Below, piece after piece: positions 1,033-20,997 of a DNA stretch of 35,265 bases. The notes below the pieces were generated by a model. That model made no database searches and was not told where the DNA came from. It was given only the letters and a program-made list of their open reading frames with translations. The translations under genes and the position numbers were made by a program. This DNA is from a virus (lineage: Duplodnaviria; Heunggongvirae; Uroviricota; Caudoviricetes): IMG/VR virus record IMGVR_UViG_2579778866_000006; one strand, 5' to 3'. Numbering within the stretch: the first letter of the stretch is position 1; each line of letters begins with the position of its first letter.

Positions 1033-2163
1033 TCACTCTGTTTCCGCTATCCATTCCGGGATTTTTGCCTCAAGCTCAAGCTGCGTGGTAAAGCCGCTGT
1101 TATCAATGGTGTGCTCGGCTTTCGCAATAATCCAGTCCTGATTATCAATCTCGCTTTTAAATCCTGTTACCGTGCCATGCATTTCGGGGTAGAGTTCTGC
1201 GCGTCCGCGTGCCAGTGTGATGGAGAATGATGCGGCTCCGCGTTGTAGTTGTTGCCACTTTGCCGCCGCTGCGCGTCTTGCTGCCTGCTCGTTCTGATAA
1301 GTCTTGCGTAACACAAACACATTGCCTTCCGCGCCTTCCATATAATCACCTTCACGGCTGCTGCTTTTCTCTTTTTTCGGTTTTGGCGGTTTGCGGCGTT
1401 TCACGCTGACTTTTTTCTTTTTCCCGTAATTAAGATCAAGCCAGTAAGCGCGTACCCCCGTATACGCCTCGCGGTCAGCAATGCGGAACTGATGGCGATC
1501 GCCGCTGCTGCGTGTGATGGCGAACGATGGCAACGGCTGGCCCTGTGCGTTCACGCCACCGCCGGGCATGATGAATAACAGATTACCGCTTTTTACCGTG
1601 GTGATTGCGCCCAGCATTTCCGCCATGCGCGTAAGGAAGGACATGTCGCTTTCTTCGGTCTGGTCGGCGTGGTCGATTTCAATATCCATCAGCATTTCGC
1701 TGATTTGCGGTTTCAGGCCGTATCGGTGAGCAATTGCAGACACCACGCGTTCAACGGTCACATCATGCCAGGATACTTCGCGCTTGACGTTAAATTCATC
1801 CCGAAAATCTGCGCTTCTGGCTGAAATGGTCAGTCTGTCGGGCGGTCCTTCATGAGCAATTTCATCAACAATGTAAGTGCCTTTTTCTGTCAGCGGTTCT
1901 CCTTTCCAGCCAATGAGAACCGTCAGGCGCGCGCCCCGTGGCGGTAGCTGCAACTGACCATCCGCATCATCCAGCGTGATGGTGAGCTGGTCCGCTTCAA
2001 ATCCCCGGTTGTCGGTCAGTGACAGGCTCATCAGGCGCTCTGCCACGCCGGACAGCGTTTCCCCCTCCGCGAGAATATCAAAATCCGGCATTTTCACGGG
2101 GTCTGTGCCCTGACTGAGCAATTGCATGGTGGTGTCGGTCATCTTTCCCTCCCTGTGCAGCAT
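1033..2163 (-). CDS. D: Tail protein D (phage late control gene D family)
   Basis: 376-aa ORF with gpD-family motifs (LSLTDNRGFEADQLTITLDDADGQL, SARSADFR, SWHDVTVE, SDMSFLTRMAEMLGAITTVK). Confidence 0.9.
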   Translation of the reverse strand: MLHREGKMTDTTMQLLSQGTDPVKMPDFDILAEGETLSGVAERLMSLSLTDNRGFEADQLTITLDDADGQLQLPPRGARLTVLIGWKGEPLTEKGTYIVDEIAHEGPPDRLTISARSADFRDEFNVKREVSWHDVTVERVVSAIAHRYGLKPQISEMLMDIEIDHADQTEESDMSFLTRMAEMLGAITTVKSGNLLFIMPGGGVNAQGQPLPSFAITRSSGDRHQFRIADREAYTGVRAYWLDLNYGKKKKVSVKRRKPPKPKKEKSSSREGDYMEGAEGNVFVLRKTYQNEQAARRAAAAKWQQLQRGAASFSITLARGRAELYPEMHGTVTGFKSEIDNQDWIIAKAEHTIDNSGFTTQLELEAKIPEWIAETE

Positions 2164-2298
2164 GGTCGCATGTGCGTGCGGAGGGGGTTACTGCTTTTTG
2201 TTGTCGCCGTGGCGGGAGAACGGCGCGGGGGTGAGATTACGCGCGTGGTGGGTGATGATTGTTGCCGAATCATTTAACGGATACAAGGGGCTGAAGCT

Positions 2299-3483
2299 AT
2301 GAGTGAAACTCGTTTTCATGGTGCCCGTGTTACGGAAAGTACCGACCTGGTAACAGCGATTAATGATGTTGATTCCAGTGTTATCGGTATCGTGGCAACG
2401 GCGGATGATGCGGATGCGGAGCTGTTCCCGCTGAACAAGCCCACACTGCTGACCCGCGTCAATGACGTGCTGGGAAAATGCGGAACAACGGGGACGCTTT
2501 ATCGTGCGCTTAAGGCCATCGCAGACCAGGTGAGCACAAAGGTGATCGTCGTTCGCGTGGCTGAACACAAAGAAGAAGACGGAAAAACGCAGGATCAACT
2601 GGTTATCGGTGGTTCTGAATCTGACGGCAGCTATACGGGGATGTATGCGCTGCTTGTTGCAGAGCAGGATGAAAGCATCGGATACCGTCCGCGTATTCTG
2701 GCCGCGCCGGAGCTGGACACGGAGGCGGTAACAAAATCCCTGTGCGTGATTGCGGGTAAACTGCGCGCGTTTGTGTATGCCTCATGTCACGGCTGTAACA
2801 CGATGGCTGAGGCGATTACCTACCGCCAGAAATTCAACGAACGTGAGGTGATGCTCTTATGGCCGGACTTCATCGCCTACAACCCGAAAAGTGGCAAAAA
2901 CGAAACGTTCCCCGCGCCTGCCTATGCGTGCGGCCTTCGTGCGTACATTGACCATGAGCAGGGCTGGCACAAATCGCTGTCCAACGTTCCGGTTAAAAAT
3001 GTGCTGGGGATGTCCAGGCATGTGTTCTGGTCGTTGCAGGCCGAAGACAGTGATGCCAACAGCCTCAACAACAAAGAAATCACGACCATTATTCGTCGCA
3101 ACGGGTTCCGTTTCTGGGGCAACCGCACCCCGGAAACGAACGCCTACATCTTTGAGGTGTATACCCGAACCGCACAGGTGCTGGCTGATTCAATTGCGGA
3201 AGCGCAGTTTGAAACCATCGACAGTCCACTGACGCCTGCGAACGTGAAAGATGTTATCAGTGCCATCAGGGCAAAACTGGATTCACTGGTTACTGCCGGG
3301 AAACTGATTGGGGCGTCGTGCTGGTATGACGTGGTGGATAACGGCACCACGAATTTACGTCAGGGGCGCGTGCGTATTCGCTACAAATATACGCCTGTTC
3401 CCCCGCTGGAAGACATGGAGCTTTACCAGTCGTTTACTGATGAATTCTTTGGTCCCGCATTTGCGGTGCTGGGAGGTGCCTGA
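2299..3483 (+). CDS. FI: Contractile tail sheath protein FI
   Basis: 394 aa; conserved blocks shared with P2 FI (ADDADAELFPLNKP, RAFVYASCHGCNTMAEAITYRQKF, WPDFIAYN, EQGWHKSLSNV, RRNGFRFWGNRT, YTPVPPLE). Confidence 0.95.
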   Translation: MSETRFHGARVTESTDLVTAINDVDSSVIGIVATADDADAELFPLNKPTLLTRVNDVLGKCGTTGTLYRALKAIADQVSTKVIVVRVAEHKEEDGKTQDQLVIGGSESDGSYTGMYALLVAEQDESIGYRPRILAAPELDTEAVTKSLCVIAGKLRAFVYASCHGCNTMAEAITYRQKFNEREVMLLWPDFIAYNPKSGKNETFPAPAYACGLRAYIDHEQGWHKSLSNVPVKNVLGMSRHVFWSLQAEDSDANSLNNKEITTIIRRNGFRFWGNRTPETNAYIFEVYTRTAQVLADSIAEAQFETIDSPLTPANVKDVISAIRAKLDSLVTAGKLIGASCWYDVVDNGTTNLRQGRVRIRYKYTPVPPLEDMELYQSFTDEFFGPAFAVLGGA

Positions 3484-3995
3484 TGGCTGTACCAAAACAT
3501 CTTCGCTTTTTTACGCTGTTTGTGGATGGTGAAAACGAAGTGGGTAAGGTGACGTCTGTCACTCTACCTAAGCTGACGCGCAAAACCGACAGCTACCGGG
3601 GTGGTGGCATGATGGGTGCGGTAAGTATTGATCTCGGTCTGGACGACTCCGCGCTTGATGCGAGCTTTGTCATGGGGGGCGCAGTTCGTGAGCTGTTCCT
3701 TAAGTATGGCGGCACGATTGACGGCACGCTGCTGCGTTTTGCGGGTGAATACTACACCGATGCAGAAAGCGACCTGTATGAAGTCGAAATGCGCGGACGT
3801 GTGACGGAAATTGATATGGGGGAAGCCAAACAGGGCGAAGCCACATCACACACTTACGCCATTAAAAACACCTACTACAAGCTGAGTGTTAACGATCGCC
3901 CGTTGTGGGAGATTGACCTGCTGAACTTCATTTACCGGAAGGACGGCAAGGACATTGTGCCCGATCGCATCCGTTCCGCGCTCGGGCTTGGCTGA
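3483..3995 (+). CDS. FII: Tail tube protein FII
   Basis: 170 aa; P2 FII-like (SVTLPKLTRKTDSYRGGGM, LGLDD); start overlaps the FI stop. Confidence 0.9.
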   Translation: MAVPKHLRFFTLFVDGENEVGKVTSVTLPKLTRKTDSYRGGGMMGAVSIDLGLDDSALDASFVMGGAVRELFLKYGGTIDGTLLRFAGEYYTDAESDLYEVEMRGRVTEIDMGEAKQGEATSHTYAIKNTYYKLSVNDRPLWEIDLLNFIYRKDGKDIVPDRIRSALGLG

Positions 3996-4049
3996 TAAGT
4001 AATATGCAGGCGGCGCAGTGCGTCGCCTCTGACTGAAAGGAGTTTCCTG

Positions 4050-4415
4050 ATGAAAGAGACGAAAAACATCGATACCGAAAACACGGTAGTTACTGACACT
4101 GTGAAAGAAACCAGTGAGCGTGGCGTAAAACTTACCCAACCAATTGAGCGAGGCGGCGAAAAAATCACGTATGTGGAGATCACCGGGGCTATTGAGCAGG
4201 CTGGATCTCTGCGAGATTTGTCGCTGTCTGATGTGCTGAATCTGAAAGCGGAATCCATGTTTACGCTGCTGTCACGCGTGACATCACCGCGACTGGATGA
4301 AGTGACGATCAAAAAAATGGCATCCCGTGACTTTATTCAGTTATGTGTGGTTGCCGTAAATTTTTTGAGCGGTGCGGACTCTGGCGGGAAGAACGAACAG
4401 GCGACGGAAGCCTGA
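4050..4415 (+). CDS. E: Tail assembly chaperone E (zero-frame product)
   Basis: Small ORF between tube and tape-measure genes, as in P2; contains the slippery heptamer near its 3' end. Confidence 0.8.
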   Translation: MKETKNIDTENTVVTDTVKETSERGVKLTQPIERGGEKITYVEITGAIEQAGSLRDLSLSDVLNLKAESMFTLLSRVTSPRLDEVTIKKMASRDFIQLCVVAVNFLSGADSGGKNEQATEA

Positions 4416-4579
4416 TCACGGTTGTGTGCTTTGAGCACATAGAAGACTTTGTGGCGGATATTGCCGCCATTTTTAACTGGTCGCCCGCCGAAATCTTCAT
4501 GATGACGCCCGGCGAAGTGGTTAGCTGGCGTGAGCGGGCGGCACTTCGCAGCGGGAATGCAGACAATGAAGACTCTTGA
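4050..4579 (+). CDS. E: Tail assembly chaperone E+E' produced by programmed -1 frameshift at T TTT TTG (about 4361-4367)
   Basis: Slippery TTTTTTG inside E; the -1 frame stays open (FFERCGLWREERTG...SWRERAALRSGNADNEDS) to 4579 and overlaps the tape-measure start, the conserved P2 E/E' arrangement. Confidence 0.75.
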
Positions 4580-7373
4580 TATCCGGGTCGCTTTCAGCGC
4601 CGTTGACAGGCTGACCCGGCCTGCCGAAAACGCCCGCCGCCTGATGGGGCAGTTTGGTGACTCCATCCAGCGAACGCAGGGGGCGATCAAAAATCTCGAG
4701 CGTCAGGCGCGATCATTTGAGCGCGCCCGCGACGCTGTCAGTAAAGCGGATGCGGGTATCGTGAAAGCACGACGCCAGCTTAACGCCCTTAATCAGTTAC
4801 AACGCACGGGTACAGTGCTCAGCGAAAAACAACAAAAGCTGATGCAGCAGTTAAGCACCCGGCTTGAACGCCTGAATGAATCGCGCACACGGGAAATTCA
4901 GAAAATGCGGGAGCTTGGCGGAGAGCTGAAACGCCACGGCATTTCCCTGACAGGCAGCGATAACACCATCCAGCAGGCCATCAGACGCACCGAACAGTAC
5001 AACAACCAGCTTGAACGCGAACGGCAGGCGCTTGCGCGTGTAACGCGGGCGCGTGAGCGGTATTCGCGCGCGCAGGAAACAGCGGGAAAACTGAAAACAG
5101 GTGGTGCGCTGGCAATTGGTGCGGCAGCGGCTGGCGGCTATGCTGCCGGACGTTTTTTGCAGCCCGCGATCGGGTTCGGGAAAGAGATGTCCCGCGTTCA
5201 GGCACTGACGCGAATCGACCAGAACAGCCCGCAGTTTAAGGCGCTGCGTGAGCAGGCGTTAAAACTTGGCTCTGAAACACAGTTTACTGCGAGTGATGCC
5301 GCCAGTGGGCAGAGCTTTCTGGCAATGGCTGGTTTTACTCCGCAGGCCATTCAGGCCGCATTGCCCGGTGTTCTTAATATGGCGCTGGCAGGTGGCGTCG
5401 AACTCGGCGAGACGGCTGATATAGGCTCCAATATCCTCACACAGTTCAACCTGACAGCCGATCAAATGGACCGGGTTGGCGATACGCTGACAGCGGCATT
5501 CACCCGGACCAATACTGATTTACGCGCGCTGGGCGAAACCATGAAGTATACCGGTCCGGTTGCCGCAAAACTTGGTATCAGTCTTGAAGAAGCGGCAGCC
5601 ATGGCCGGGATGCTTGCCAATAATGGTCTTCGCGGAAGCGATGCTGGTACGGCCATGCGCGCAAGTCTGTCCCGCCTTGCATCACCGCCAAAAGCTGCGG
5701 CTGATGCGCTGAAAGAGCTGGGAGTGTCAGTTGCTGACGCCAGAGGCAAAATGCGCCCGATGGAGGATGTGCTGGTTGATCTCTATAAGGCGACACAAAA
5801 ATACGGACAGGTGGACCAGGTTTCCTTCTTCAAGGACATCGCCGGAGAAGAGGCGTTCGTTGGTTTGCAGACGCTTGTTGCGGCGGCCGGTTCAGGAGAG
5901 CTGCAAAAACTGACCAGAGAATTGCAGGAGGCAAGGGGAGAGGCCGATCGCGTCGCAAAAGTAATGGCCGATAATCTTGATGGGGACCTGAAAAATCTCG
6001 ACAGCGCATGGGAAGGTCTTCGTATTCGCATCAGTGATCTGGTTGACGGTCCGCTGCGTTCTGTCACGCAGTGGCTCACGCGGGTGCTTGAAAAAATCAC
6101 CTCGCTGGCGCAGGCCCATCCGGTGCTGACGCGCCAGCTACTGATAGCAGGCGGTGCGTTGCTGGCAATGACTGCAACGATTGGCTCGTTGTCGCTGGTT
6201 ATTGGGGTGCTTTACGGGAAGCTGGCCACGCTGCGTCTTGGTTTTGACATTCTTACCCGGTCAATGAATGTCGTCAGGGTGTTGCCTGCGCTGTGGGGAA
6301 TGGTGACGGGTTCCGTTTCTTTACTGGGAGGCGCTATCGGGGCGCTGTTCAGTCCGGTTGGTCTTATCGTGGCTGCGCTTGCCGGAGCTGCCGTTCTTAT
6401 CTGGAAATACTGGGATCCCATCAGGGCATTTTTTGCCGGGGTGTTCAGCGGGATCATGGAAAGGCTGACCCCGTTGCGCGAAACCTTTGAACGGTTTGGT
6501 CCTGTTTTTGACGCAATCGGAAGCGGGATCAGCCAGGTGTTTAACTGGTTTAAATCGCTGCTGTCACCGATGGAGTCCAGCAAGGAAACGCTGGATAAAT
6601 GTACCAGTGCTGGCGAGATATTCGGTAACGTTCTTGGCGGTGCGTTACAGCTTGTTCTGACACCTGCCAAAATGCTACTGGATACGCTGGCGTGGATACT
6701 TGAAAAACTTGGCGTCCTTCCGGATGAAGCGGAAAGGGCGCGCAAGAAAATCGAAGACGCACAGCGTGCGGCCATTCTTCAGGACAAGGTTGCCTTGCTT
6801 CAGGGGGACCTTGCGAAAATCAATCCACCGAAGCCTGTGGAAAATGGCAATGGCACCGGAGGTGATAAACCCAAAGACAACAAACCGCTCACAGACAGCA
6901 ATACCGGGACGCTACGCAGACTCAGCAAAATTGCTGATAACACAGGTAAGCTGGTTGATGAGACGAAAAAACGCATTGGCCCCGGCGATATTGTCTTTAA
7001 GAACCTGCCCCGCGCACTTGCTGTTCGTGGGGAGTGGCAGGAGCGGAAGATTGCGCAGGTCAGTAAGCCTGCCCCCGCAATTAATATCACACCCGTAGTC
7101 CCGGCTCCGCTGCCTCCGGCGCTGGTCCCTGTTGTTGCGGCCAGCTCCCGCCCGGTGGCGGAGGCCATACGATCGCCAGTGGCATCAGTTCCTGCAGCTT
7201 CCCGTAATCGGGAGCCTGCTGTCTCCGGATTTGGCGGTGAAATTCATGTTCATCTGCATAACGTTGTTACGCAGAATCCCCGCGAACTGGCGAAACTGGT
7301 CGGTGAAATGGTCAGGGCAGAGATGGAACGGCGCGCCCGTGCCGGACGTGGCAGTTTTTACGATAAAGATTGA
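4530..7373 (+). CDS. T: Tail tape measure protein T
   Basis: 947-aa ORF with coiled-coil N-terminal region, Gly/Ala-rich hydrophobic central segments and a proline-rich C-terminal tract; positioned between E/E' and U. Confidence 0.9.
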   Translation: MSGRHFAAGMQTMKTLDIRVAFSAVDRLTRPAENARRLMGQFGDSIQRTQGAIKNLERQARSFERARDAVSKADAGIVKARRQLNALNQLQRTGTVLSEKQQKLMQQLSTRLERLNESRTREIQKMRELGGELKRHGISLTGSDNTIQQAIRRTEQYNNQLERERQALARVTRARERYSRAQETAGKLKTGGALAIGAAAAGGYAAGRFLQPAIGFGKEMSRVQALTRIDQNSPQFKALREQALKLGSETQFTASDAASGQSFLAMAGFTPQAIQAALPGVLNMALAGGVELGETADIGSNILTQFNLTADQMDRVGDTLTAAFTRTNTDLRALGETMKYTGPVAAKLGISLEEAAAMAGMLANNGLRGSDAGTAMRASLSRLASPPKAAADALKELGVSVADARGKMRPMEDVLVDLYKATQKYGQVDQVSFFKDIAGEEAFVGLQTLVAAAGSGELQKLTRELQEARGEADRVAKVMADNLDGDLKNLDSAWEGLRIRISDLVDGPLRSVTQWLTRVLEKITSLAQAHPVLTRQLLIAGGALLAMTATIGSLSLVIGVLYGKLATLRLGFDILTRSMNVVRVLPALWGMVTGSVSLLGGAIGALFSPVGLIVAALAGAAVLIWKYWDPIRAFFAGVFSGIMERLTPLRETFERFGPVFDAIGSGISQVFNWFKSLLSPMESSKETLDKCTSAGEIFGNVLGGALQLVLTPAKMLLDTLAWILEKLGVLPDEAERARKKIEDAQRAAILQDKVALLQGDLAKINPPKPVENGNGTGGDKPKDNKPLTDSNTGTLRRLSKIADNTGKLVDETKKRIGPGDIVFKNLPRALAVRGEWQERKIAQVSKPAPAINITPVVPAPLPPALVPVVAASSRPVAEAIRSPVASVPAASRNREPAVSGFGGEIHVHLHNVVTQNPRELAKLVGEMVRAEMERRARAGRGSFYDKD

Positions 7374-7379
7374 GGAGTC

Positions 7380-7874
7380 ATGGCCATGATGATGATCTAC
7401 GGCATGTTTGTTTTTGAGCTGCGCACATTGCCGCATCAGCAGTTACAGCAAAACAAAAGCTGGCGGCATGTGAAAAATGAACGCGTTAACCGCTCAGCAA
7501 GCTGGCAGTATATCGGTGCAGGTGATGATCGCATTGTGCTTTCTGGCGTGCTTTATCCTGAAATTACAGGTGGCGAAGTGTCGCTTTCGTTGCTGACCAC
7601 GCAGGCATATACAGGACGCCCCTGGCCTCTGATTGATGGTGTCGGGCAGATTTACGGCATGTATGTGCTGACTGAAACGAATACGACCCGTTCCGAGTTT
7701 GATCGCTACGGTAAGGCGAAAAAGATAGAATTTTCACTGACCCTTGAACGCTGTGATGAGGATTTGCGGGAGCGCCTGCAATCCTCATCGTTCAGCGATA
7801 TGCTGTCCGGCTTCAAAGATAAGGTGACATCATCTCTTAACAGCGCGGCCAGTTCAGTTAAAGGGCTGTTCTGA
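7380..7874 (+). CDS. U: Tail protein U
   Basis: 164 aa; similar to P2 gpU (MMM..GMFVF.L.T.P.Q.LQ....WRH, GDD.I.LSGVL.PE.TGG, YGMYV, KIEFSL.L.R.DE). Confidence 0.85.
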   Translation: MAMMMIYGMFVFELRTLPHQQLQQNKSWRHVKNERVNRSASWQYIGAGDDRIVLSGVLYPEITGGEVSLSLLTTQAYTGRPWPLIDGVGQIYGMYVLTETNTTRSEFDRYGKAKKIEFSLTLERCDEDLRERLQSSSFSDMLSGFKDKVTSSLNSAASSVKGLF

Positions 7875-7880
7875 TTTAAC

Positions 7881-7920
7881 ACAAAAACCGCTAATGGTCA
7901 GATTAGCGGTTATTTTGTTT
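7881..7920. terminator. Bidirectional intrinsic terminator between convergent U and invertase genes
   Basis: Perfect 10-bp stem aaccgctaat / attagcggtt with 6-nt loop, A-run on one side and T-run on the other. Confidence 0.7.
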
Positions 7921-8515
7921 CCTGACTCTTCTCTATTGTTCCGCTTGATTCTCCTGCGGGGTGGTAACGATAAATCGTCGATATACCAATGCCGTAAATT
8001 ATTGCCAGTTGTTTTCTGTCGTGCCCGTTTTTGATCAGCCTTGCTATTTGCTCATGCTGTTCTTTTGTCAGCTTCGGGCGACGTCCGCCTGTGCGCCCCC
8101 GTGCGCGCGCTGCCGCCAGTCCGGCCAGTGTACGTTCAACAATTAATTCACGTTCCATTTCAGCCAGGGCACCCATCACGTGGAAGAAAAAACGCCCCAT
8201 TGGAGAAGATGTATCTATGCTGTCGGTCAGACTGCGAAAATTAATCCCTCGCTCCCGTAGTTCCCCGACGAGAGAAATCAGATGTTTCATGCTTCGCCCG
8301 AGGCGATCCAGTTTCCAGACAACCAGCGTGTCACCTTTTTGAAGGCGCTTTAAAGCGCGTTTTAATCCCGGTCGGTCTGTCTTTGTCCCGCTTAATTTAT
8401 CTTCAAATATTTGTTCACATCCTGCACAAACAAGAGCGTTTCGTTGCAGGTCTGTATTCTGGTCATTTGTTGATACCCTTACATAGCCAATCAGCACGCT
8501 GAATCTCCCGTCCAA
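7910..8515 (-). CDS. Serine recombinase, DNA invertase of the Gin/Cin/Pin/Hin family
   Basis: 201 aa; N-terminal resolvase catalytic domain (GYVRVSTNDQ with the catalytic Ser, LVVWKLDRLGRS) and C-terminal HTH (GISTIYRY); adjacent to a gix-like crossover site. Confidence 0.95.
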   Translation of the reverse strand: MDGRFSVLIGYVRVSTNDQNTDLQRNALVCAGCEQIFEDKLSGTKTDRPGLKRALKRLQKGDTLVVWKLDRLGRSMKHLISLVGELRERGINFRSLTDSIDTSSPMGRFFFHVMGALAEMERELIVERTLAGLAAARARGRTGGRRPKLTKEQHEQIARLIKNGHDRKQLAIIYGIGISTIYRYHPAGESSGTIEKSQETK

Positions 8516-8551
8516 AAGCGTAAATCATGCCATGCAGGTCAGAAACGACCA

Positions 8552-8577
8552 TTATCTAAAACCTCGGTTTACGAGAA
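8552..8577. other. gix/hix-like 26-bp inversion crossover site (left end of invertible segment)
   Basis: TTATCTAAAACCTCGGTTTACGAGAA; its reverse complement TTCTCGTAAACCGAGGTTTTAGATAA closely matches Mu gix TTCCTGTAAACCGAGGTTTTGGATAA. Coordinates about +/-2 bp. Confidence 0.8.
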
Positions 8578-9273
8578 CTCGGCACAAGCGGGGAGAAAAT
8601 ACCGTTACTCAGTACAGCGAATACCTGGACTAATCGACAAACATTCAGCGGTGGCCTTTCTGGTGAACTATCCGGCAATGCTTCTACAGCTGCAAAATTA
8701 AAAACTGCCAGGAAAATAAGCAATGTGGCTTTTGATGGTTCCTCCGATATCACATTAAAAGCAAGTCATGTTGGTGCGTTTGCCTTAGGGAAAACAGGAA
8801 GCACCGTTGCGAATGATAAAGCAGTTGGATGGAACTGGAGTAGCGGAGCCTATAACGCAACTATTAGTGGTGCATCAACGTTAATTATTCATTTTTATAT
8901 GGGAGAAGGAAGTTGTCCTGCAGCTCAGTTTCGGATTAATTATAAAAATGGCGGTATTTTTTATCGTTCAGCCCGTGATGGTTATGGTTTTGAAGCCGAC
9001 TGGTCCGAATTTTACACCACCACCAGAAAACCTTCAGCAGGAGATGTTGGTGCATATACTAAAGCGGAATGTAATTCACGATTTATTACAGGTGTCCGTT
9101 TAGGAGGACTGTCATCTGTTCAAACATGGAATGGGCCTGGTTGGTCTGATAAGTCAGGTTATGTCGTTACAGGTTCAGTTAACGGAAACCGTGACGAATT
9201 AATTGATACAACTCAGGCAAGGCCAATTCAGTATTGCATTAATGGGACGTGGTATAACGCGGGGAGTATTTAA
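8566..9273 (+). CDS. Alternative tail-fibre C-terminal variable cassette (Sv'-like); no start of its own, expressed only after inversion
   Basis: Track ORF 8725..9273 starts at the first GTG of a frame that is open back to the crossover site at about 8566 and closed by TAA just upstream. C-terminal motif RPIQYCINGTWYNAGSI parallels RPIQKYINGTWYNVAQV of the H gene. Confidence 0.7.
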   Translation, partial: GLRELGTSGEKIPLLSTANTWTNRQTFSGGLSGELSGNASTAAKLKTARKISNVAFDGSSDITLKASHVGAFALGKTGSTVANDKAVGWNWSSGAYNATISGASTLIIHFYMGEGSCPAAQFRINYKNGGIFYRSARDGYGFEADWSEFYTTTRKPSAGDVGAYTKAECNSRFITGVRLGGLSSVQTWNGPGWSDKSGYVVTGSVNGNRDELIDTTQARPIQYCINGTWYNAGSI

Positions 9274-9275
9274 CG

Positions 9276-9809
9276 ATGATGCACTTAAAAAACATTACTG
9301 CTGGCAATCCTAAAACAAAAGAGCAATATCAGCTAACAAAGCAATTTAACATCAAATGGCTTTATACAGAGGATGGAAAAAACTGGTATGAGGAACAAAA
9401 GAATTTCCAGTCTGATACGTTGAAAATGGTCTATGACCATAACGGCGTTATTATTTGTATTGAAAAGGATGTTTCAGCAATTAATCCAGAAGGCGCAAGC
9501 GTCGTTGAATTACCTGATATTACAGCAAATCGCCGGGCTGATATTTCGGGTAAATGGATGTTCAAAGATGGCGTAGTGGTAAAGCGAACTTATACCGAGG
9601 AAGAGCAGAGGCAACAAGCGGAAAATGAAAAGCAAAGCTTGCTACAGCTCGTCAGGGATAAAACCCAGCTATGGGACTCACAGCTACGGCTGGGCATCAT
9701 TTCCGACGAGAATAAACAAAAATTAACAGAGTGGATGCTCTACGCGCAGAAAGTCGAATCCACAGACACCTCCAGCCTGCCAGTAACATTTCCCGAACAA
9801 CCTGAATGA
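9276..9809 (+). CDS. Tail fibre assembly protein, alternative copy (G'/U'-like)
   Basis: 177 aa; N-terminus [24 protein letters not shown] is nearly identical to the oppositely oriented 9838..10365 gene; C-terminus diverges. Confidence 0.85.
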   Translation: MMHLKNITAGNPKTKEQYQLTKQFNIKWLYTEDGKNWYEEQKNFQSDTLKMVYDHNGVIICIEKDVSAINPEGASVVELPDITANRRADISGKWMFKDGVVVKRTYTEEEQRQQAENEKQSLLQLVRDKTQLWDSQLRLGIISDENKQKLTEWMLYAQKVESTDTSSLPVTFPEQPE

Positions 9810-9810
9810 G

Positions 9811-9840
9811 ACAAGGCCCGCTATCGGGCCTTAATTTTTA
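9811..9840 (+). terminator. Terminator-like hairpin between the two convergent tail fibre assembly genes
   Basis: Stem aggccc / gggcct followed by taattttta. Confidence 0.45.
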
Positions 9841-10365
9841 TTCAGGCTTTTGTGGCCATTCGGGATTTGCTGTATCCACACGGCTGACCAGAACGCTGTA
9901 GCGTTCCCATGACTCCAGTCGTGCGCGTTCCTCATCCGTCGCCATGTTCAGCCTGACAGCGCGTTCCAGTGGCTGGATAACTGATTCAGCTTCGGAAAGT
10001 AATGCGGCCTTTTGTGATTTGGCCTGTTGTTGCTGTTCGTCTGCCGTATAAATCCGCTTAACTACAGCCCCGTCCTTAAACATCCACTTACCTGAATCAT
10101 CGGCACGGCGATTAGCTGTAATATCAGGAACTTCAACGACGCTATAGCCTTCAGGGTTAAGCGTGGAGGCATCTTTGGTGATGGCGACAATAATATTATT
10201 CTCGTCATAAAGAATTTTTATTGTGTCTTCCTGAAAGTTCTTTAATTCCTCGTACCAGTTTTTCCCATCTTCTGACCACAACCAGATAACATCAAAATTC
10301 TTTGTTAGCTGATATTGCTCTTTTGTTTTAGGATTGCCAGCAGTAATGTTTTTTAAATGCTGCAT
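9838..10365 (-). CDS. G: Tail fibre assembly protein G, currently expressed copy
   Basis: 175 aa; immediately downstream of H on the same strand; N-terminus [24 protein letters not shown]. Confidence 0.85.
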
Positions 10366-10368
10366 GAT

Positions 10369-12387
10369 TTATACCTGTGCAACGTTATACCATGTGCCAT
10401 TGATGTATTTTTGTATTGGTCTGAACACAGCCGGATCATCGCCATCAACTTCGCCGACAATGCCAAGCCCCGTAATTGCATGGCCTGATTTTTCATACAT
10501 CACGCCTTTTTGCATAGTTTGAACAACACGCGTGCCAAGTCTGACATCTCTCACATAGCGTGAATCAAAATTCCCCCAGTTGCTGGGTTGTATCTGACCG
10601 TTTACAGCAAATATCACCGAGTTATCTGTATTTCGCTGACTATAGAAATGCCAGCCTGAATCATCACCAAGCTCTGCAACAGTTGGTCTTGATGAAGTGC
10701 CCCATAAATTAAACCCTACGTTCTTCGTGGAGTTGTTGGAGCTGGATAGCGTGAATTTTTTACCATCCCCAGCCTGAATATTTTTAAAAGCAATAGCCAC
10801 TCCATTCTGAAAGCGGAATACACGCTGACTATTAGCATAAACATCAAGAATACCGTCTCCATTCTGTTTAAATCCGGTATCATTATCACCAAGAGCAATA
10901 GAGCTACCACCTAACGCATTCGTCGTACCAACTCCAAGGCTGCCATTAATGACGGCATTAACAAGAATATTTAGTGCATCCCATTTCAGCGTCATCAGGT
11001 CTTTTGTTGTGGTGCTTTGTTTGCTTCTCCATTTGAAATATTCATTGCCGTTGTCACCTGTCTCAAACCACATGTATGAATCAGTGTCACCATCGGCATC
11101 ATTTTTAAATCCAATCTTCGCCCAGTCAGTATTTCGAATCCAGGCAAGGATTGAGTCATTTTCAAAAGTAAGCCCACCGGACAAAGTATCGCCATTTTTT
11201 TGCACGGCGTTACCAGCCCTGTTTACCGTTTCCTGTAAACCGAGGTATTCGATAACGGCAGCAACGGTCGATTTCGCAAGAATATCCCGCCCGACTTTTG
11301 TCAGGGTTGCCAGGCTGGCGACATCATTCCCCGTAAAATACGGAAACTTGTCTGCCGCAGTAGCAAGCCCGGCCAGCGCCGTCAGGGTGGCATCTTTCGG
11401 TTGCTTACCCGCAAGCGCGTTAGTCATGGTGGTCGCAAAATTCGGGTCGTTTCCCAGCGCCGCCGCTAACTCGTTCAGTGTATTCAGTGCGTCAGGTGAC
11501 GAATCTACAAGGGCGGCAATCGCAGCCATAACGAAAGCCGTGCTTGCTATTTGGGTATTATTCGTTCCCTGTCGCGCAGTTGGCGTTGTTGGCGTTCCGG
11601 TCAGCGCAGGACTGTTTAAGGGCGCTTTCTTGTTCGTTTCATCCATTACCGCCTTAACCGCTTTCGATGTCGCGGCCAGTGTTTCAGACGTGCTGTTGGT
11701 GGCACTACTGAGCTGGACTATCCCTTTTTGTGCCGTCGTGGCGTCCTGAGCGGTATATTTTGCGTTAGCCAGGTCATACGCGGCCTTAACCGCTTTCGGC
11801 GTTGCAGCCAGCGTTTCAGAATCGCTGTTAGTGGCGCTACTGAGTTGAACAAAGCCTTTTGCGGTCAGCGAGGCGTCCGGGTGACGTCGTGACTGTTCAT
11901 GCTCTTTCAGTTTGTCATCCACGTAATCCACTGTGGCCATCACCATGGTGTTATCCACGGTAAGCGCCACGGTGGCAGTGCTGGATACGGTCAGAATGGT
12001 GCGAAATGTTTGTGCACGCCCGGACCCTTCGGCAACGGCTGGCTTGTAACTTTCGGCAGTATTGCCCACCGCGATTAAATCGCCGTGCTCATCAAATACA
12101 CCAATTTCCCGGATCCAGAATCCGCCCGTTTCAGGAGGAATAACCAGCTCCGCAATAATGCGGTTCTGATGTGTTGCGTCCAGGATGACGCGATTAACAG
12201 TGTGTCGCCACACCTCATGCACCAGACGGGTCTGCTTACTGTCTGGTGTGGGCAATGTACCGCCACCATCGCCCACGGCCATATGAGTCAGGCGGACAGG
12301 CTTACCATCTGGCGCGGCTGCCTGCGCTAATTTTTTGGTACCAGTATCAGTGATAATGGTTTTAAATTTTCGTGTTGTGGTACTCAT
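10369..12387 (-). CDS. H: Tail fibre protein H (constant N-terminal part plus currently joined variable C-terminal cassette)
   Basis: 672 aa; internal tandem Ala/Thr/Ser-rich repeats (GFVQLSSATNSDSETLAATPKAVKAAYD, duplicated); gix-like site lies in-frame at codons about 379-386 (IEYLGLQE). Confidence 0.9.
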   Translation of the reverse strand: MSTTTRKFKTIITDTGTKKLAQAAAPDGKPVRLTHMAVGDGGGTLPTPDSKQTRLVHEVWRHTVNRVILDATHQNRIIAELVIPPETGGFWIREIGVFDEHGDLIAVGNTAESYKPAVAEGSGRAQTFRTILTVSSTATVALTVDNTMVMATVDYVDDKLKEHEQSRRHPDASLTAKGFVQLSSATNSDSETLAATPKAVKAAYDLANAKYTAQDATTAQKGIVQLSSATNSTSETLAATSKAVKAVMDETNKKAPLNSPALTGTPTTPTARQGTNNTQIASTAFVMAAIAALVDSSPDALNTLNELAAALGNDPNFATTMTNALAGKQPKDATLTALAGLATAADKFPYFTGNDVASLATLTKVGRDILAKSTVAAVIEYLGLQETVNRAGNAVQKNGDTLSGGLTFENDSILAWIRNTDWAKIGFKNDADGDTDSYMWFETGDNGNEYFKWRSKQSTTTKDLMTLKWDALNILVNAVINGSLGVGTTNALGGSSIALGDNDTGFKQNGDGILDVYANSQRVFRFQNGVAIAFKNIQAGDGKKFTLSSSNNSTKNVGFNLWGTSSRPTVAELGDDSGWHFYSQRNTDNSVIFAVNGQIQPSNWGNFDSRYVRDVRLGTRVVQTMQKGVMYEKSGHAITGLGIVGEVDGDDPAVFRPIQKYINGTWYNVAQV
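11230..11255. other. gix-like 26-bp inversion crossover site inside H (right end of invertible segment)
   Basis: TTCCTGTAAACCGAGGTATTCGATAA on the plus strand, inverted relative to the site at about 8552-8577; 22 of 26 positions match Mu gix. Confidence 0.8.
11638..11856 (-). repeat. Tandem in-frame duplication (two units of about 44 codons) within tail fibre gene H
   Basis: Protein repeats GFVQLSSATNSDSETLAATPKAVKAAYD and GIVQLSSATNSTSETLAATSKAVKAVMD; the DNA units are visibly similar. Confidence 0.6.
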
Positions 12388-16140: not shown

Positions 16141-16366
16141 GTCTGGCCTCTCCGTCCTGATTGCGTTGCTGATTTTCCGCGCGGAGTTGTGCCAGCACCT
16201 GCTGCATATCCTGTACCCCGGCGCTGATGATATTCAGGGTGTCGACGGTACGTTTCAGGGTGCTGGCCTGCGCTTCGTTTCTGGCGTTCTCCCGGCCCAG
16301 CGACCACGACAGACGCAATGCGGCAATCAGAAGAAAAGCGACGCCCAGAGAAGTCCATAACTTCAT
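15971..16366 (-). CDS. Inner-membrane spanin (LysB/Rz-like)
   Basis: 131 aa; N-terminal TM segment (LWTSLGVAFLLIAAL) followed by a charged coiled-coil region; downstream of the endolysin. Confidence 0.6.
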   Translation of the reverse strand: MKLWTSLGVAFLLIAALRLSWSLGRENARNEAQASTLKRTVDTLNIISAGVQDMQQVLAQLRAENQQRNQDGEARREQLRNDIAKDECAHALPDARFTDRLRRHAERATASAVSPAYTADADHTGNASPLP

Positions 16367-20876: not shown

Positions 20877-20997
20877 GATGGCAAAGCGTAACAGGCTGAT
20901 ACAAAGGGCTTTTGTTGTAAGAAAACGGCCAGAACAGGGGGTTAAGGAGAACGGTTTCGCGCGCGGGTAATCTTCCTGTAATTACTCAGGGGGAGCA
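20877..20997. promoter_or_regulatory. Divergent late promoter region between O and P (expected Ogr-dependent promoters)
   Basis: 121-bp intergenic region between divergently transcribed head operon and terminase/portal operon; the position is equivalent to P2 PO/PP. No exact TGT-N12-ACA element was found by eye. Confidence 0.5.

Follow-up and report, generated by a model that had tools for sequence, protein, structure and literature searches.

In the P2 record the genes FI-FII-E-T-U-D-ogr are co-directional. In both P2 and 186 an Ogr-type activator site precedes the FI ATG by ∼83-88 bp, and transcription from pF in P2 starts 57-59 bp from the center of the P2 site. Elsewhere in P2, a single activator site stands between the divergent promoters pP and pO, its center at a distance of 55.5 bp from each of the two mapped starts. 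A different layout occurs in the Xuanwuvirus members P88, P884B11, 500465-2, 520873 and Citrobacter phage phiSM (Shae_phiSM), in which D and FI diverge and U converges on an invertase gene. We analyzed a 35,265-nucleotide stretch of viral DNA (IMG/VR record IMGVR_UViG_2579778866_000006; hereafter the window) that has this second layout and that, judged by its sequence, is a P88-like prophage of the genus Xuanwuvirus, family Peduoviridae. It shows only allelic and cargo differences from these phages, for example in the content of the tail-fiber segment, and is another member of the group.

The P2-type tail gene set of the window is complete, with orthologues of FI, FII, E/E' with a −1 frameshift site, T, U and D recognized by Pfam and by tblastn against the P2 proteins (32-49% amino acid identity). 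On the minus strand lie an ogr-type late activator gene (730-990; Pfam Ogr_Delta, E = 5e-14; 42% identity to P2 Ogr) and D, the baseplate hub/late control protein (ORF 1033-2163; Pfam Phage_GPD; 49% identity to P2 gpD). Only 42 bp separate ogr from the stop codon of D, and ogr, being downstream, is probably co-transcribed with it. The true start of D is likely the ATG at 2142, corresponding to Met8 of the ORF, which is conserved and is preceded by the Shine-Dalgarno sequence AGGGAGG at 2148-2154. On the plus strand follow the tail sheath gene FI (2299-3483; Pfam Phage_sheath_1 and related domains; 46% identity to P2 FI), the tail tube gene FII (3483-3995; Pfam Phage_tube, E = 7.5e-47; 42%), and the tail assembly chaperone genes E (4050-4415; 32%) and E' (to ∼4579), with the slippery sequence TTTTTTG, also common to P2 and 186, at 4361-4367; the P88 annotation has two ORFs, E and E', at the equivalent positions. 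The tape measure gene T (∼4566-7373; Pfam PhageMin_Tail, E = 2.4e-56; 33%) has an ATG at 4566 that matches the annotated start in P88, and U (7380-7874; Pfam Phage_P2_GpU, E = 5.5e-39; 46%) is the final gene of the plus-strand block. Beyond it a Gin-like serine DNA invertase (7910-8515; Pfam Resolvase and HTH_7) and the genes G, H, I, J, W, V onward to O are all on the minus strand.

The gene identities and strands thus bear out the initial annotation, which had described FI, FII, E, T and U as inverted relative to P2 and 186 while ogr, D and the O-to-G genes are on the minus strand, and the ORF map likewise agrees that FI diverges from D and U converges on the invertase. D-ogr is placed as in P2 and 186 relative to att/int, and because ogr, D, C and int all occupy their P2 positions, the inverted segment is FI-to-U only. 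A single co-directional seven-gene operon running from pF is absent from the window, and with D on the opposite strand the FI promoter does not reach it, as had been proposed, and it needs a promoter of its own. Unlike its counterparts in P2 and 186, D is outside the FI operon and is not translationally coupled to U, having its own Shine-Dalgarno sequence and a putative promoter. The left inversion junction is the divergent D/FI control region (2143-2298; 156 bp); the right one, where U and the invertase gene converge, is a bidirectional intrinsic terminator (7878-7919), with a 10-bp stem (AACCGCTAAT/ATTAGCGGTT) and T-runs on both strands, which was also recovered as inverted repeat I14.

The same arrangement was found throughout the closely related prophages. 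The ogr-to-invertase region (8.4 kb) aligns in one piece with Shae_phiSM, P884B11, 500465-2 and P88 (megablast; 92-97% nucleotide identity, 94-100% coverage), and the P88 and phiSM annotations give the same strands and the same order: ogr and D (minus), FI to U (plus), the invertase or other cargo, then G, H and onward (minus). Thirteen phage records share the junctions of the inverted layout, and of 5426 complete E. coli genomes, 1355 are collinear with the window across the D/FI junction. An assembly artefact in the window, which the initial annotation had considered, is refuted by these identical junctions in independently sequenced phages and complete genomes, and its probability is negligible; we found nothing in its favor. 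A synthetic query for the P2-like D|U junction was matched in none of the 1417 E. coli genomes that carry the genes. Among 160 loci compared, all 80 from IMG/VR are inverted (D 62-100% identical to that of the window), and the 80 from genomes divide into 48 inverted loci (D 61-98%) and 32 canonical ones (D 47-54%), so that overall the inverted layout accompanies D at ≥61% identity in 128 of 128 cases and the canonical layout accompanies D at 47-54% in 32 of 32. The hosts of the 48 inverted genome loci include Salmonella, Serratia, Erwinia, Pantoea, Enterobacter, Klebsiella and Pectobacterium as well as Xenorhabdus, Photorhabdus, Providencia, Morganella, Hafnia, Yersinia and others. Divergent D and FI genes also occur in other genera and hosts, namely in Senquatrovirus SEN4, Serratia phage KSP20/prophage PP4 and the Klebsiella phages Kp48xx, where D is 62-80% identical to that of the window and the cargo beside U is different. 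The layout is standard for a prophage family that about one-quarter of complete E. coli genomes carry, among them those of O157:H7, O104:H4, UTI89 and E2348/69-type strains, and that also occurs in many further Enterobacterales; we regard it as almost certainly a fixed trait of a P2-like lineage.

The invertase gene adjoins U and is 92-96% identical in nucleotide sequence to those of Mu and D108, and one reading of the locus is that this Gin-like enzyme uses cryptic sites to flip the FI-U block, with the orientation varying within populations. Searches for gix-like sites and inverted repeats nevertheless gave neither at either junction, in agreement with what had been noted earlier for the D/FI junction. 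The only inverted-repeat pair linking the two junctions (1745-1771/7460-7486; 74% complementary) falls within the coding sequences of D and U and is no better than expected by chance. A search for gix-like matches with up to 3 mismatches returned nothing besides 8552-8577, and the sole gix-like pair, 8549-8577 and 11230-11258, forms inverted repeat I3 (29 nt, 83% complementary) around a segment (8549-11258) whose plus face carries gp37_C and Caudo_TAP ORFs and whose minus face carries G and H, offering an alternative fiber C terminus and assembly genes. This resembles the Mu G segment and the P1 C segment, acted on by Gin and Cin, which likewise have gix-like inverted sites and alternative fiber and assembly genes, and the Mu/P1-type system of the window would act on this tail-fiber segment, not on the FI-U block. 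The FI-U orientation is moreover the same where the invertase is missing, as in O104:H4 and O157:H7 prophages and Salmonella phage SEN4, so the orientation is independent of the enzyme. With the flipped junction also absent from all 1417 E. coli genomes at the assembly level and all 128 clade loci in one orientation, both the suggested link of the block to the invertase and the suggested heterogeneity of its orientation fall away, and flipping by the invertase is very improbable. On the sequence evidence the real substrate of the invertase is the tail-fiber segment, and the enzyme is cargo, not the cause of the FI-U inversion; it is best read as tail-fiber host-range cargo.

A neighbor-joining tree of the D proteins has one branch that parts 124 inverted from 31 canonical sequences, a monophyly based on one protein and on a distance tree without bootstrap support. 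This clean split points to a single ancient inversion that would mark an Enterobacterales clade. In 388 of 526 phage records U lies next to D on the same strand, and because these span beta- and gamma-proteobacterial hosts, the canonical U-D order is taken as ancestral. The ancestral breakpoints would have been just upstream of the pF activator site and at the U/D boundary, splitting the P2 F operon into one unit that would run from pF through FI-FII-E/E'-T-U to the terminator at 7878-7919 and a new second unit, D to ogr. Alternatively, FI-U could have been replaced, in the opposite orientation, by the tail module of a different P2-like phage, given that P2-like genomes are mosaic and that H and G, at 86-92% identity to P2, stand apart from the rest of the window (32-61%), which shows a recent module exchange next door. 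Within the block, however, FI to U are 32-46% identical to the P2 proteins, which is comparable to D (49%) and to the head genes (36-47%), and this equal distance, shared also by the baseplate genes, favors inversion in place over a module swap. The pF site has also been kept, as has its spacing from FI, and the FI and D identities co-vary over the 160 loci. Such a replacement is therefore improbable, and an old replacement in reverse by a donor that was itself equally distant from P2 has a similarly small chance of being correct. The D/FI versus U-D junction offers a simple and clean marker that divides P2-like phages into two clades. The arrangement itself is ordinary, and our main contribution is a correction, in that P2 as the sole template makes a normal layout look anomalous. 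In the openly accessible literature we covered, which includes the P88, phiSM, SEN4, Serratia PP4 and Burkholderia P2-like papers, we found no explicit description of the inversion, nor of how it splits the operon and serves as a clean synapomorphy for a large Enterobacterales clade of Peduoviridae.

Between D and FI lies a predicted Ogr-type activator palindrome, GTTGT-N12-AGAAC (2200-2221, centered at 2210.5), that resembles the activator sites of P2, such as GTTGT-N12-CCAAC at pF. The pattern GTTGT-N12-ASAAC has two matches in the window against 0.12 expected, one here and the other in the O/P intergenic region (20914-20935), which has the same design as P2 pP/pO. The strict P2 consensus TGT-N12-ACA gave 7 matches in the window against 8.6 expected, none of them in the relevant intergenic regions, and missed the site because that of this lineage reads GTTGT-N12-AGAAC. 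All 76 distinct related D/FI intergenic regions carry an Ogr-type site, its center 78-89 bp from the FI ATG and 66-84 bp from the Shine-Dalgarno-preceded D ATG (nearly all 66-80 bp, mostly 68-72 bp). Site sequence and distance to the FI ATG are thus conserved and match P2 (TGT-N12-ACA family), the distance in the window corresponding to that in P2 and 186. In 48 representatives less than 85% identical to each other, conserved blocks flank the central site on both sides, and −10-like hexamers are kept 43-49 bp from the center in either direction. Toward FI the candidate pF −10 element is TGATGAT (2253-2259, plus strand; consensus GAtnAT in relatives; 43-49 bp from the center), with a predicted start near 2265-2266. 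Toward D the candidate pD −10 hexamer is GACCAT (2162-2167, minus strand; 43.5-48.5 bp from the center), which agrees with TATAAT at 3 of 6 positions; its equivalent in relatives is AATCAT, within a conserved block (CGCGCGCGTGAAATCAT) that runs throughout the inverted clade and is absent from the canonical relatives. The predicted pD start is near 2155, leaving a D leader of ∼13 nt that would begin at the Shine-Dalgarno sequence. A simple sigma-70 consensus scan listed no site within 2143-2298, so that any promoter there is non-canonical. Such a null result is what one would expect of promoters that depend on an activator.

To judge by these conserved elements, D is most likely transcribed from a late promoter of its own. 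The initial annotation had named, as evidence against its reading, intact relatives with the arrangement as their norm and a defined D promoter; the former proved to be the case, and for the latter the relatives offer a conserved candidate in the sequence. The D/FI region resembles P2 pP/pO in having one GTTGT-N12-type palindrome midway between divergent late genes with weak −10-like hexamers on both sides, and differs in having arisen, as it would seem, secondarily by inversion and in having starts that are predicted from sequence. We think it probable that the one palindrome centered at 2210.5 activates pF and pD alike (predicted starts near 2265 and 2155, respectively), working as the single site of P2 does for pP and pO. 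A pD acting independently of the palindrome would be uncoupled from pF, for instance as a sigma-70 or extended −10 promoter within the 156-bp region (TGn-AATCAT in relatives), either constitutive or under a different control. Consistent with this, the D-side block of most relatives (CGTGAAATCAT) resembles an extended −10 element, and the sigma-70 scan was empty. No −35-like element was detected, however, and the distance from the center to the D hexamer (44-49 bp) mirrors both the FI side (43-48 bp) and the pP/pO geometry and stays constant while the surrounding sequence diverges, which makes an Ogr-independent pD rather unlikely.

With the shared palindrome as the preferred reading, the inversion may, by a slight balance of the evidence, have made a second pP/pO-style bidirectional late promoter, in which one Ogr dimer site at 2200-2221 co-activates pF and a newly evolved pD for D-ogr, D is uncoupled from U in translation and stoichiometry, and late positive feedback on ogr is kept. 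Such an operon, split by inversion and rescued through a common activator site, would make the D/FI palindrome a testable example. Taken as a whole, a fixed inverted lineage with a pD that uses the shared site is very probably the best explanation. If the palindrome activates both promoters, D, and ogr by read-through, would remain under late control and tail assembly would be normal. The earlier proposal that tail assembly might be impaired in this orientation is contradicted by P88, which forms plaques and has a contractile tail of ∼137-140 nm by electron microscopy (PMC5285337), and by phiSM, an active phage (PMC6456863); particles of SEN4 and of Serratia PP4 have likewise been seen by electron microscopy (PMC5261728, PMC9826266).

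Mapping the window from its ORF listing, Pfam scans, and tblastn searches with P2 proteins placed ogr (730-990) and D (1033-2163 as the longest ORF) on the minus strand and FI (2299-3483), FII (3483-3995), E (4050-4415), T (∼4566-7373), and U (7380-7874) on the plus strand. A P2-type slippery TTTTTTG lies within E at 4361-4367, with E' reaching ∼4579. The ORF listing and Pfam then gave a resolvase-family invertase gene (7910-8515, minus strand) and alternative fiber and assembly ORFs (8725-9809, plus strand). Beyond 9809, G, H, I, J, W, V, and onward to O were found on the minus strand; P and Q follow O on the plus strand, C and int occupy the right end, and the replication genes lie between P/Q and that end. 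Compared with the annotated P2 genome, order and relative orientation are retained outside FI-to-U, and the prophage-end genes ogr and int are no exception. Only FI-to-U departs from this arrangement, and the observation in the initial annotation that this 5.7-kb segment is inverted as one block relative to P2 is therefore correct. By tblastn, the amino acid identity of FI, FII, E, T, and U to P2 (32-46%) falls in a similar range to that of D (49%), the head proteins (36-47%), and the baseplate proteins (44-61%), which argues for inversion in place and not for import of a foreign module.

Loci surrounding relatives of D were collected, 80 from IMG/VR and 80 from genomes, and FI, FII, T, U, D, and ogr were located on each. 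All loci with a D 61-100% identical to that of the window (80 + 48) read U- T- FII- FI- followed by D+ ogr+, whereas those with a D 47-54% identical read FI+ FII+ T+ U+ D+ ogr+ (32 of 32). A neighbor-joining tree of 155 distinct D proteins divides 124 inverted from 31 canonical sequences by a single branch, and hosts of the inverted set include Salmonella, Citrobacter, Enterobacter, Klebsiella, Kosakonia, Serratia, Erwinia, Pantoea, Pectobacterium, Brenneria, Edwardsiella, Hafnia, Morganella, Providencia, Xenorhabdus, Photorhabdus, and Yersinia. On these comparisons, the inversion appears to mark a deep Enterobacterales clade cleanly. A fused U+D protein query against 50,697 phage records placed U and D side by side and in the same direction in 388 of 526 records, including phages of Burkholderia, Ralstonia, Pseudomonas, Vibrio, Mannheimia, and Xanthomonas, a breadth indicating that the inverted order derives from an ancestral P2 order. 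Among named phages, those with the inverted order include Xuanwuvirus, Senquatrovirus SEN4, Serratia KSP20, and several Klebsiella phages. Two of the loci are decayed prophage copies: in E. coli O157:H7 F6294 (L003), IS30 truncates D, T carries a frameshift, and the head genes have been replaced, and in E. coli O104:H4 2009EL-2050 (L004), an inserted DUF3800 gene separates ogr from a shortened D. Symbiopectobacterium purcellii MEX carries the inverted-type tail region three times in one chromosome (L093, L094, and L096), once with a disrupted FI-FII interval. One locus 97% identical to this prophage (L089, NZ_JBQPOM010000071.1) comes from an assembly labeled as the Gram-positive Vagococcus sp. 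WN89Y, which is probably contaminated or mislabeled.

The initial annotation had also raised an assembly artefact, a heterogeneous population, and impaired tail assembly, all of which are refuted by the comparisons that follow. The 8.4-kb stretch that begins at ogr and ends with the invertase gene forms a single collinear alignment (92-97% identity) with P88, P884B11, 500465-2, and Citrobacter phage Shae_phiSM, and annotated gene strands in these independently sequenced P88-type phages agree with the window. A 1.2-kb probe spanning the D/FI junction aligns collinearly with 1355 of the 5426 complete E. coli genomes, which with the phage junctions rules out an artefact. With a synthetic probe joining the D 5' end to the U 3' end, the P2-like D/U junction expected of the alternative orientation was found as one place in 0 of 1417 E. 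coli genomes carrying the pieces. P88 forms plaques, with a burst size of ∼65 and a contractile tail of ∼137-140 nm (PMC5285337), phiSM is temperate and active (PMC6456863), and myovirus particles are also known from SEN4 (PMC5261728) and the Serratia PP4/KSP20 phages (PMC9826266); therefore, the layout leaves tail assembly unimpaired. The inverted FI-to-U block is the normal and fixed state of this lineage of phages, which is already known and very common.

The first ATG of the longest D ORF (2163) has no ribosome-binding site, whereas the Met-8 ATG at 2142 is preceded by AGGGAGG, is the conserved start in relatives, and is used by P88 and most of them. We take 2142 as the true start, which sets the D/FI control region at 2143-2298. 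In its middle lies a candidate activator site, GTTGTCGCCGTGGCGGGAGAAC (2200-2221). The motif GTTGT-N12-ASAAC has exactly two matches in the 35 kb (0.12 expected), here and in the divergent O/P gap (20914-20935). The activator site of P2, 186, and P4 is TGT-N12-ACA, of which the perfect palindrome GTTGT-N12-ACAAC of more distant relatives is an extended form; P2 itself has GTTGT-N12-CCAAC at pF, the FI promoter, and GTTGT-N12-CCATC at pP/pO, its divergent late promoters. A GTTGT-N12-type site is found in each of the 76 distinct D/FI regions taken from IMG/VR. Despite divergence of the neighboring sequence, the FI ATG stays 78-89 bp from the site center, and the D ATG that follows a Shine-Dalgarno sequence stays 66-84 bp from it (66-80 in nearly all regions, and mostly 68-72). 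A similar sequence, spacer included, is CGTGGTCGCTGGGCCGGGAGAACG (16285-16308, minus strand) in the lysis-gene region upstream of R; because S and V overlap, leaving no intergenic gap ahead of V, it may serve as a third late promoter site standing in for P2 pV.

Stacking 48 representatives (<85% identical to each other) on the site center revealed a conserved -10-like hexamer on each side, GAtnAT at +43 to +48 toward FI and AATCAT 44 to 49 from the center toward D, the latter inside the conserved block CGCGCGCGTGAAATCAT and reading GACCAT in the window (2167-2162). In the P2 record, pO and pP share one annotated activator site, and each mapped start lies 55.5 bp from its center. This design recurs in the D/FI region and predicts starts near 2265 for FI (leader ∼33 nt) and near 2155 for D (leader ∼13 nt, opening at the Shine-Dalgarno sequence). 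Canonical relatives retain the pF site ∼80-86 bp upstream of the FI ATG; on its far side their sequence is unrelated and often contains a terminator, so that the conserved D-side block is confined to the inverted clade. On balance, we favor a reading in which D would have been rescued after the inversion through joint use of the pF activator site, as part of a bidirectional promoter of the pP/pO kind. This putative rescue and the inversion as a clade marker are the only modestly new points; the layout itself can be seen in deposited, annotated genomes going back at least to the records of KSP20 and P88, and we found no published comment on it in the literature searched, the P88, phiSM, SEN4, and PP4 papers included. 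Because ogr starts 42 bp after D, a transcript from the D promoter would read into it, as the P2 F-operon transcript does. A sigma-70-like match, GTAACA-18-GATAAT (9/12; 1141-1170, minus strand), is a candidate independent ogr promoter; it lies within the D 3' end, ∼150 bp upstream of ogr, whereas that of P2 lies in the D-ogr gap.

The invertase, which the initial annotation had noted as abutting the block, is a bystander to the inversion. The U/invertase junction occurs in only 620 E. coli genomes, about as many having other cargo after U; this position holds a serine O-acetyltransferase gene in the O104:H4 and O157:H7 prophages and nothing comparable in SEN4, and in all three FI-to-U has the orientation seen in the window. 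Scans found no gix-like site (a Gin-type crossover site) or meaningful inverted repeat at 2143-2298, as originally noted for the D/FI junction, or at 7875-7909. The only gix-like pair in the window (8549-8577 and 11230-11258) bounds a 2.7-kb tail-fiber segment with alternative fiber C termini and assembly genes on both strands, the plus-strand ORFs 8725-9273 and 9276-9809 facing G and the H C terminus on the minus strand. With the invertase gene (92-96% identical in DNA to those of Mu and D108), 8549-11258 resembles the Mu G segment as an invertible tail-fiber cassette. H and G (9838-12387) are 86% and 92% identical in amino acid sequence to those of P2, against 25-61% for the other structural proteins, which indicates a recent exchange of the tail-fiber module with a P2-type phage. 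The site between U and G (7875-7909 in the window, with equivalents in L003, L004, and a further relative, L086) is a cargo hot spot corresponding to the Z/fun moron locus of P2.
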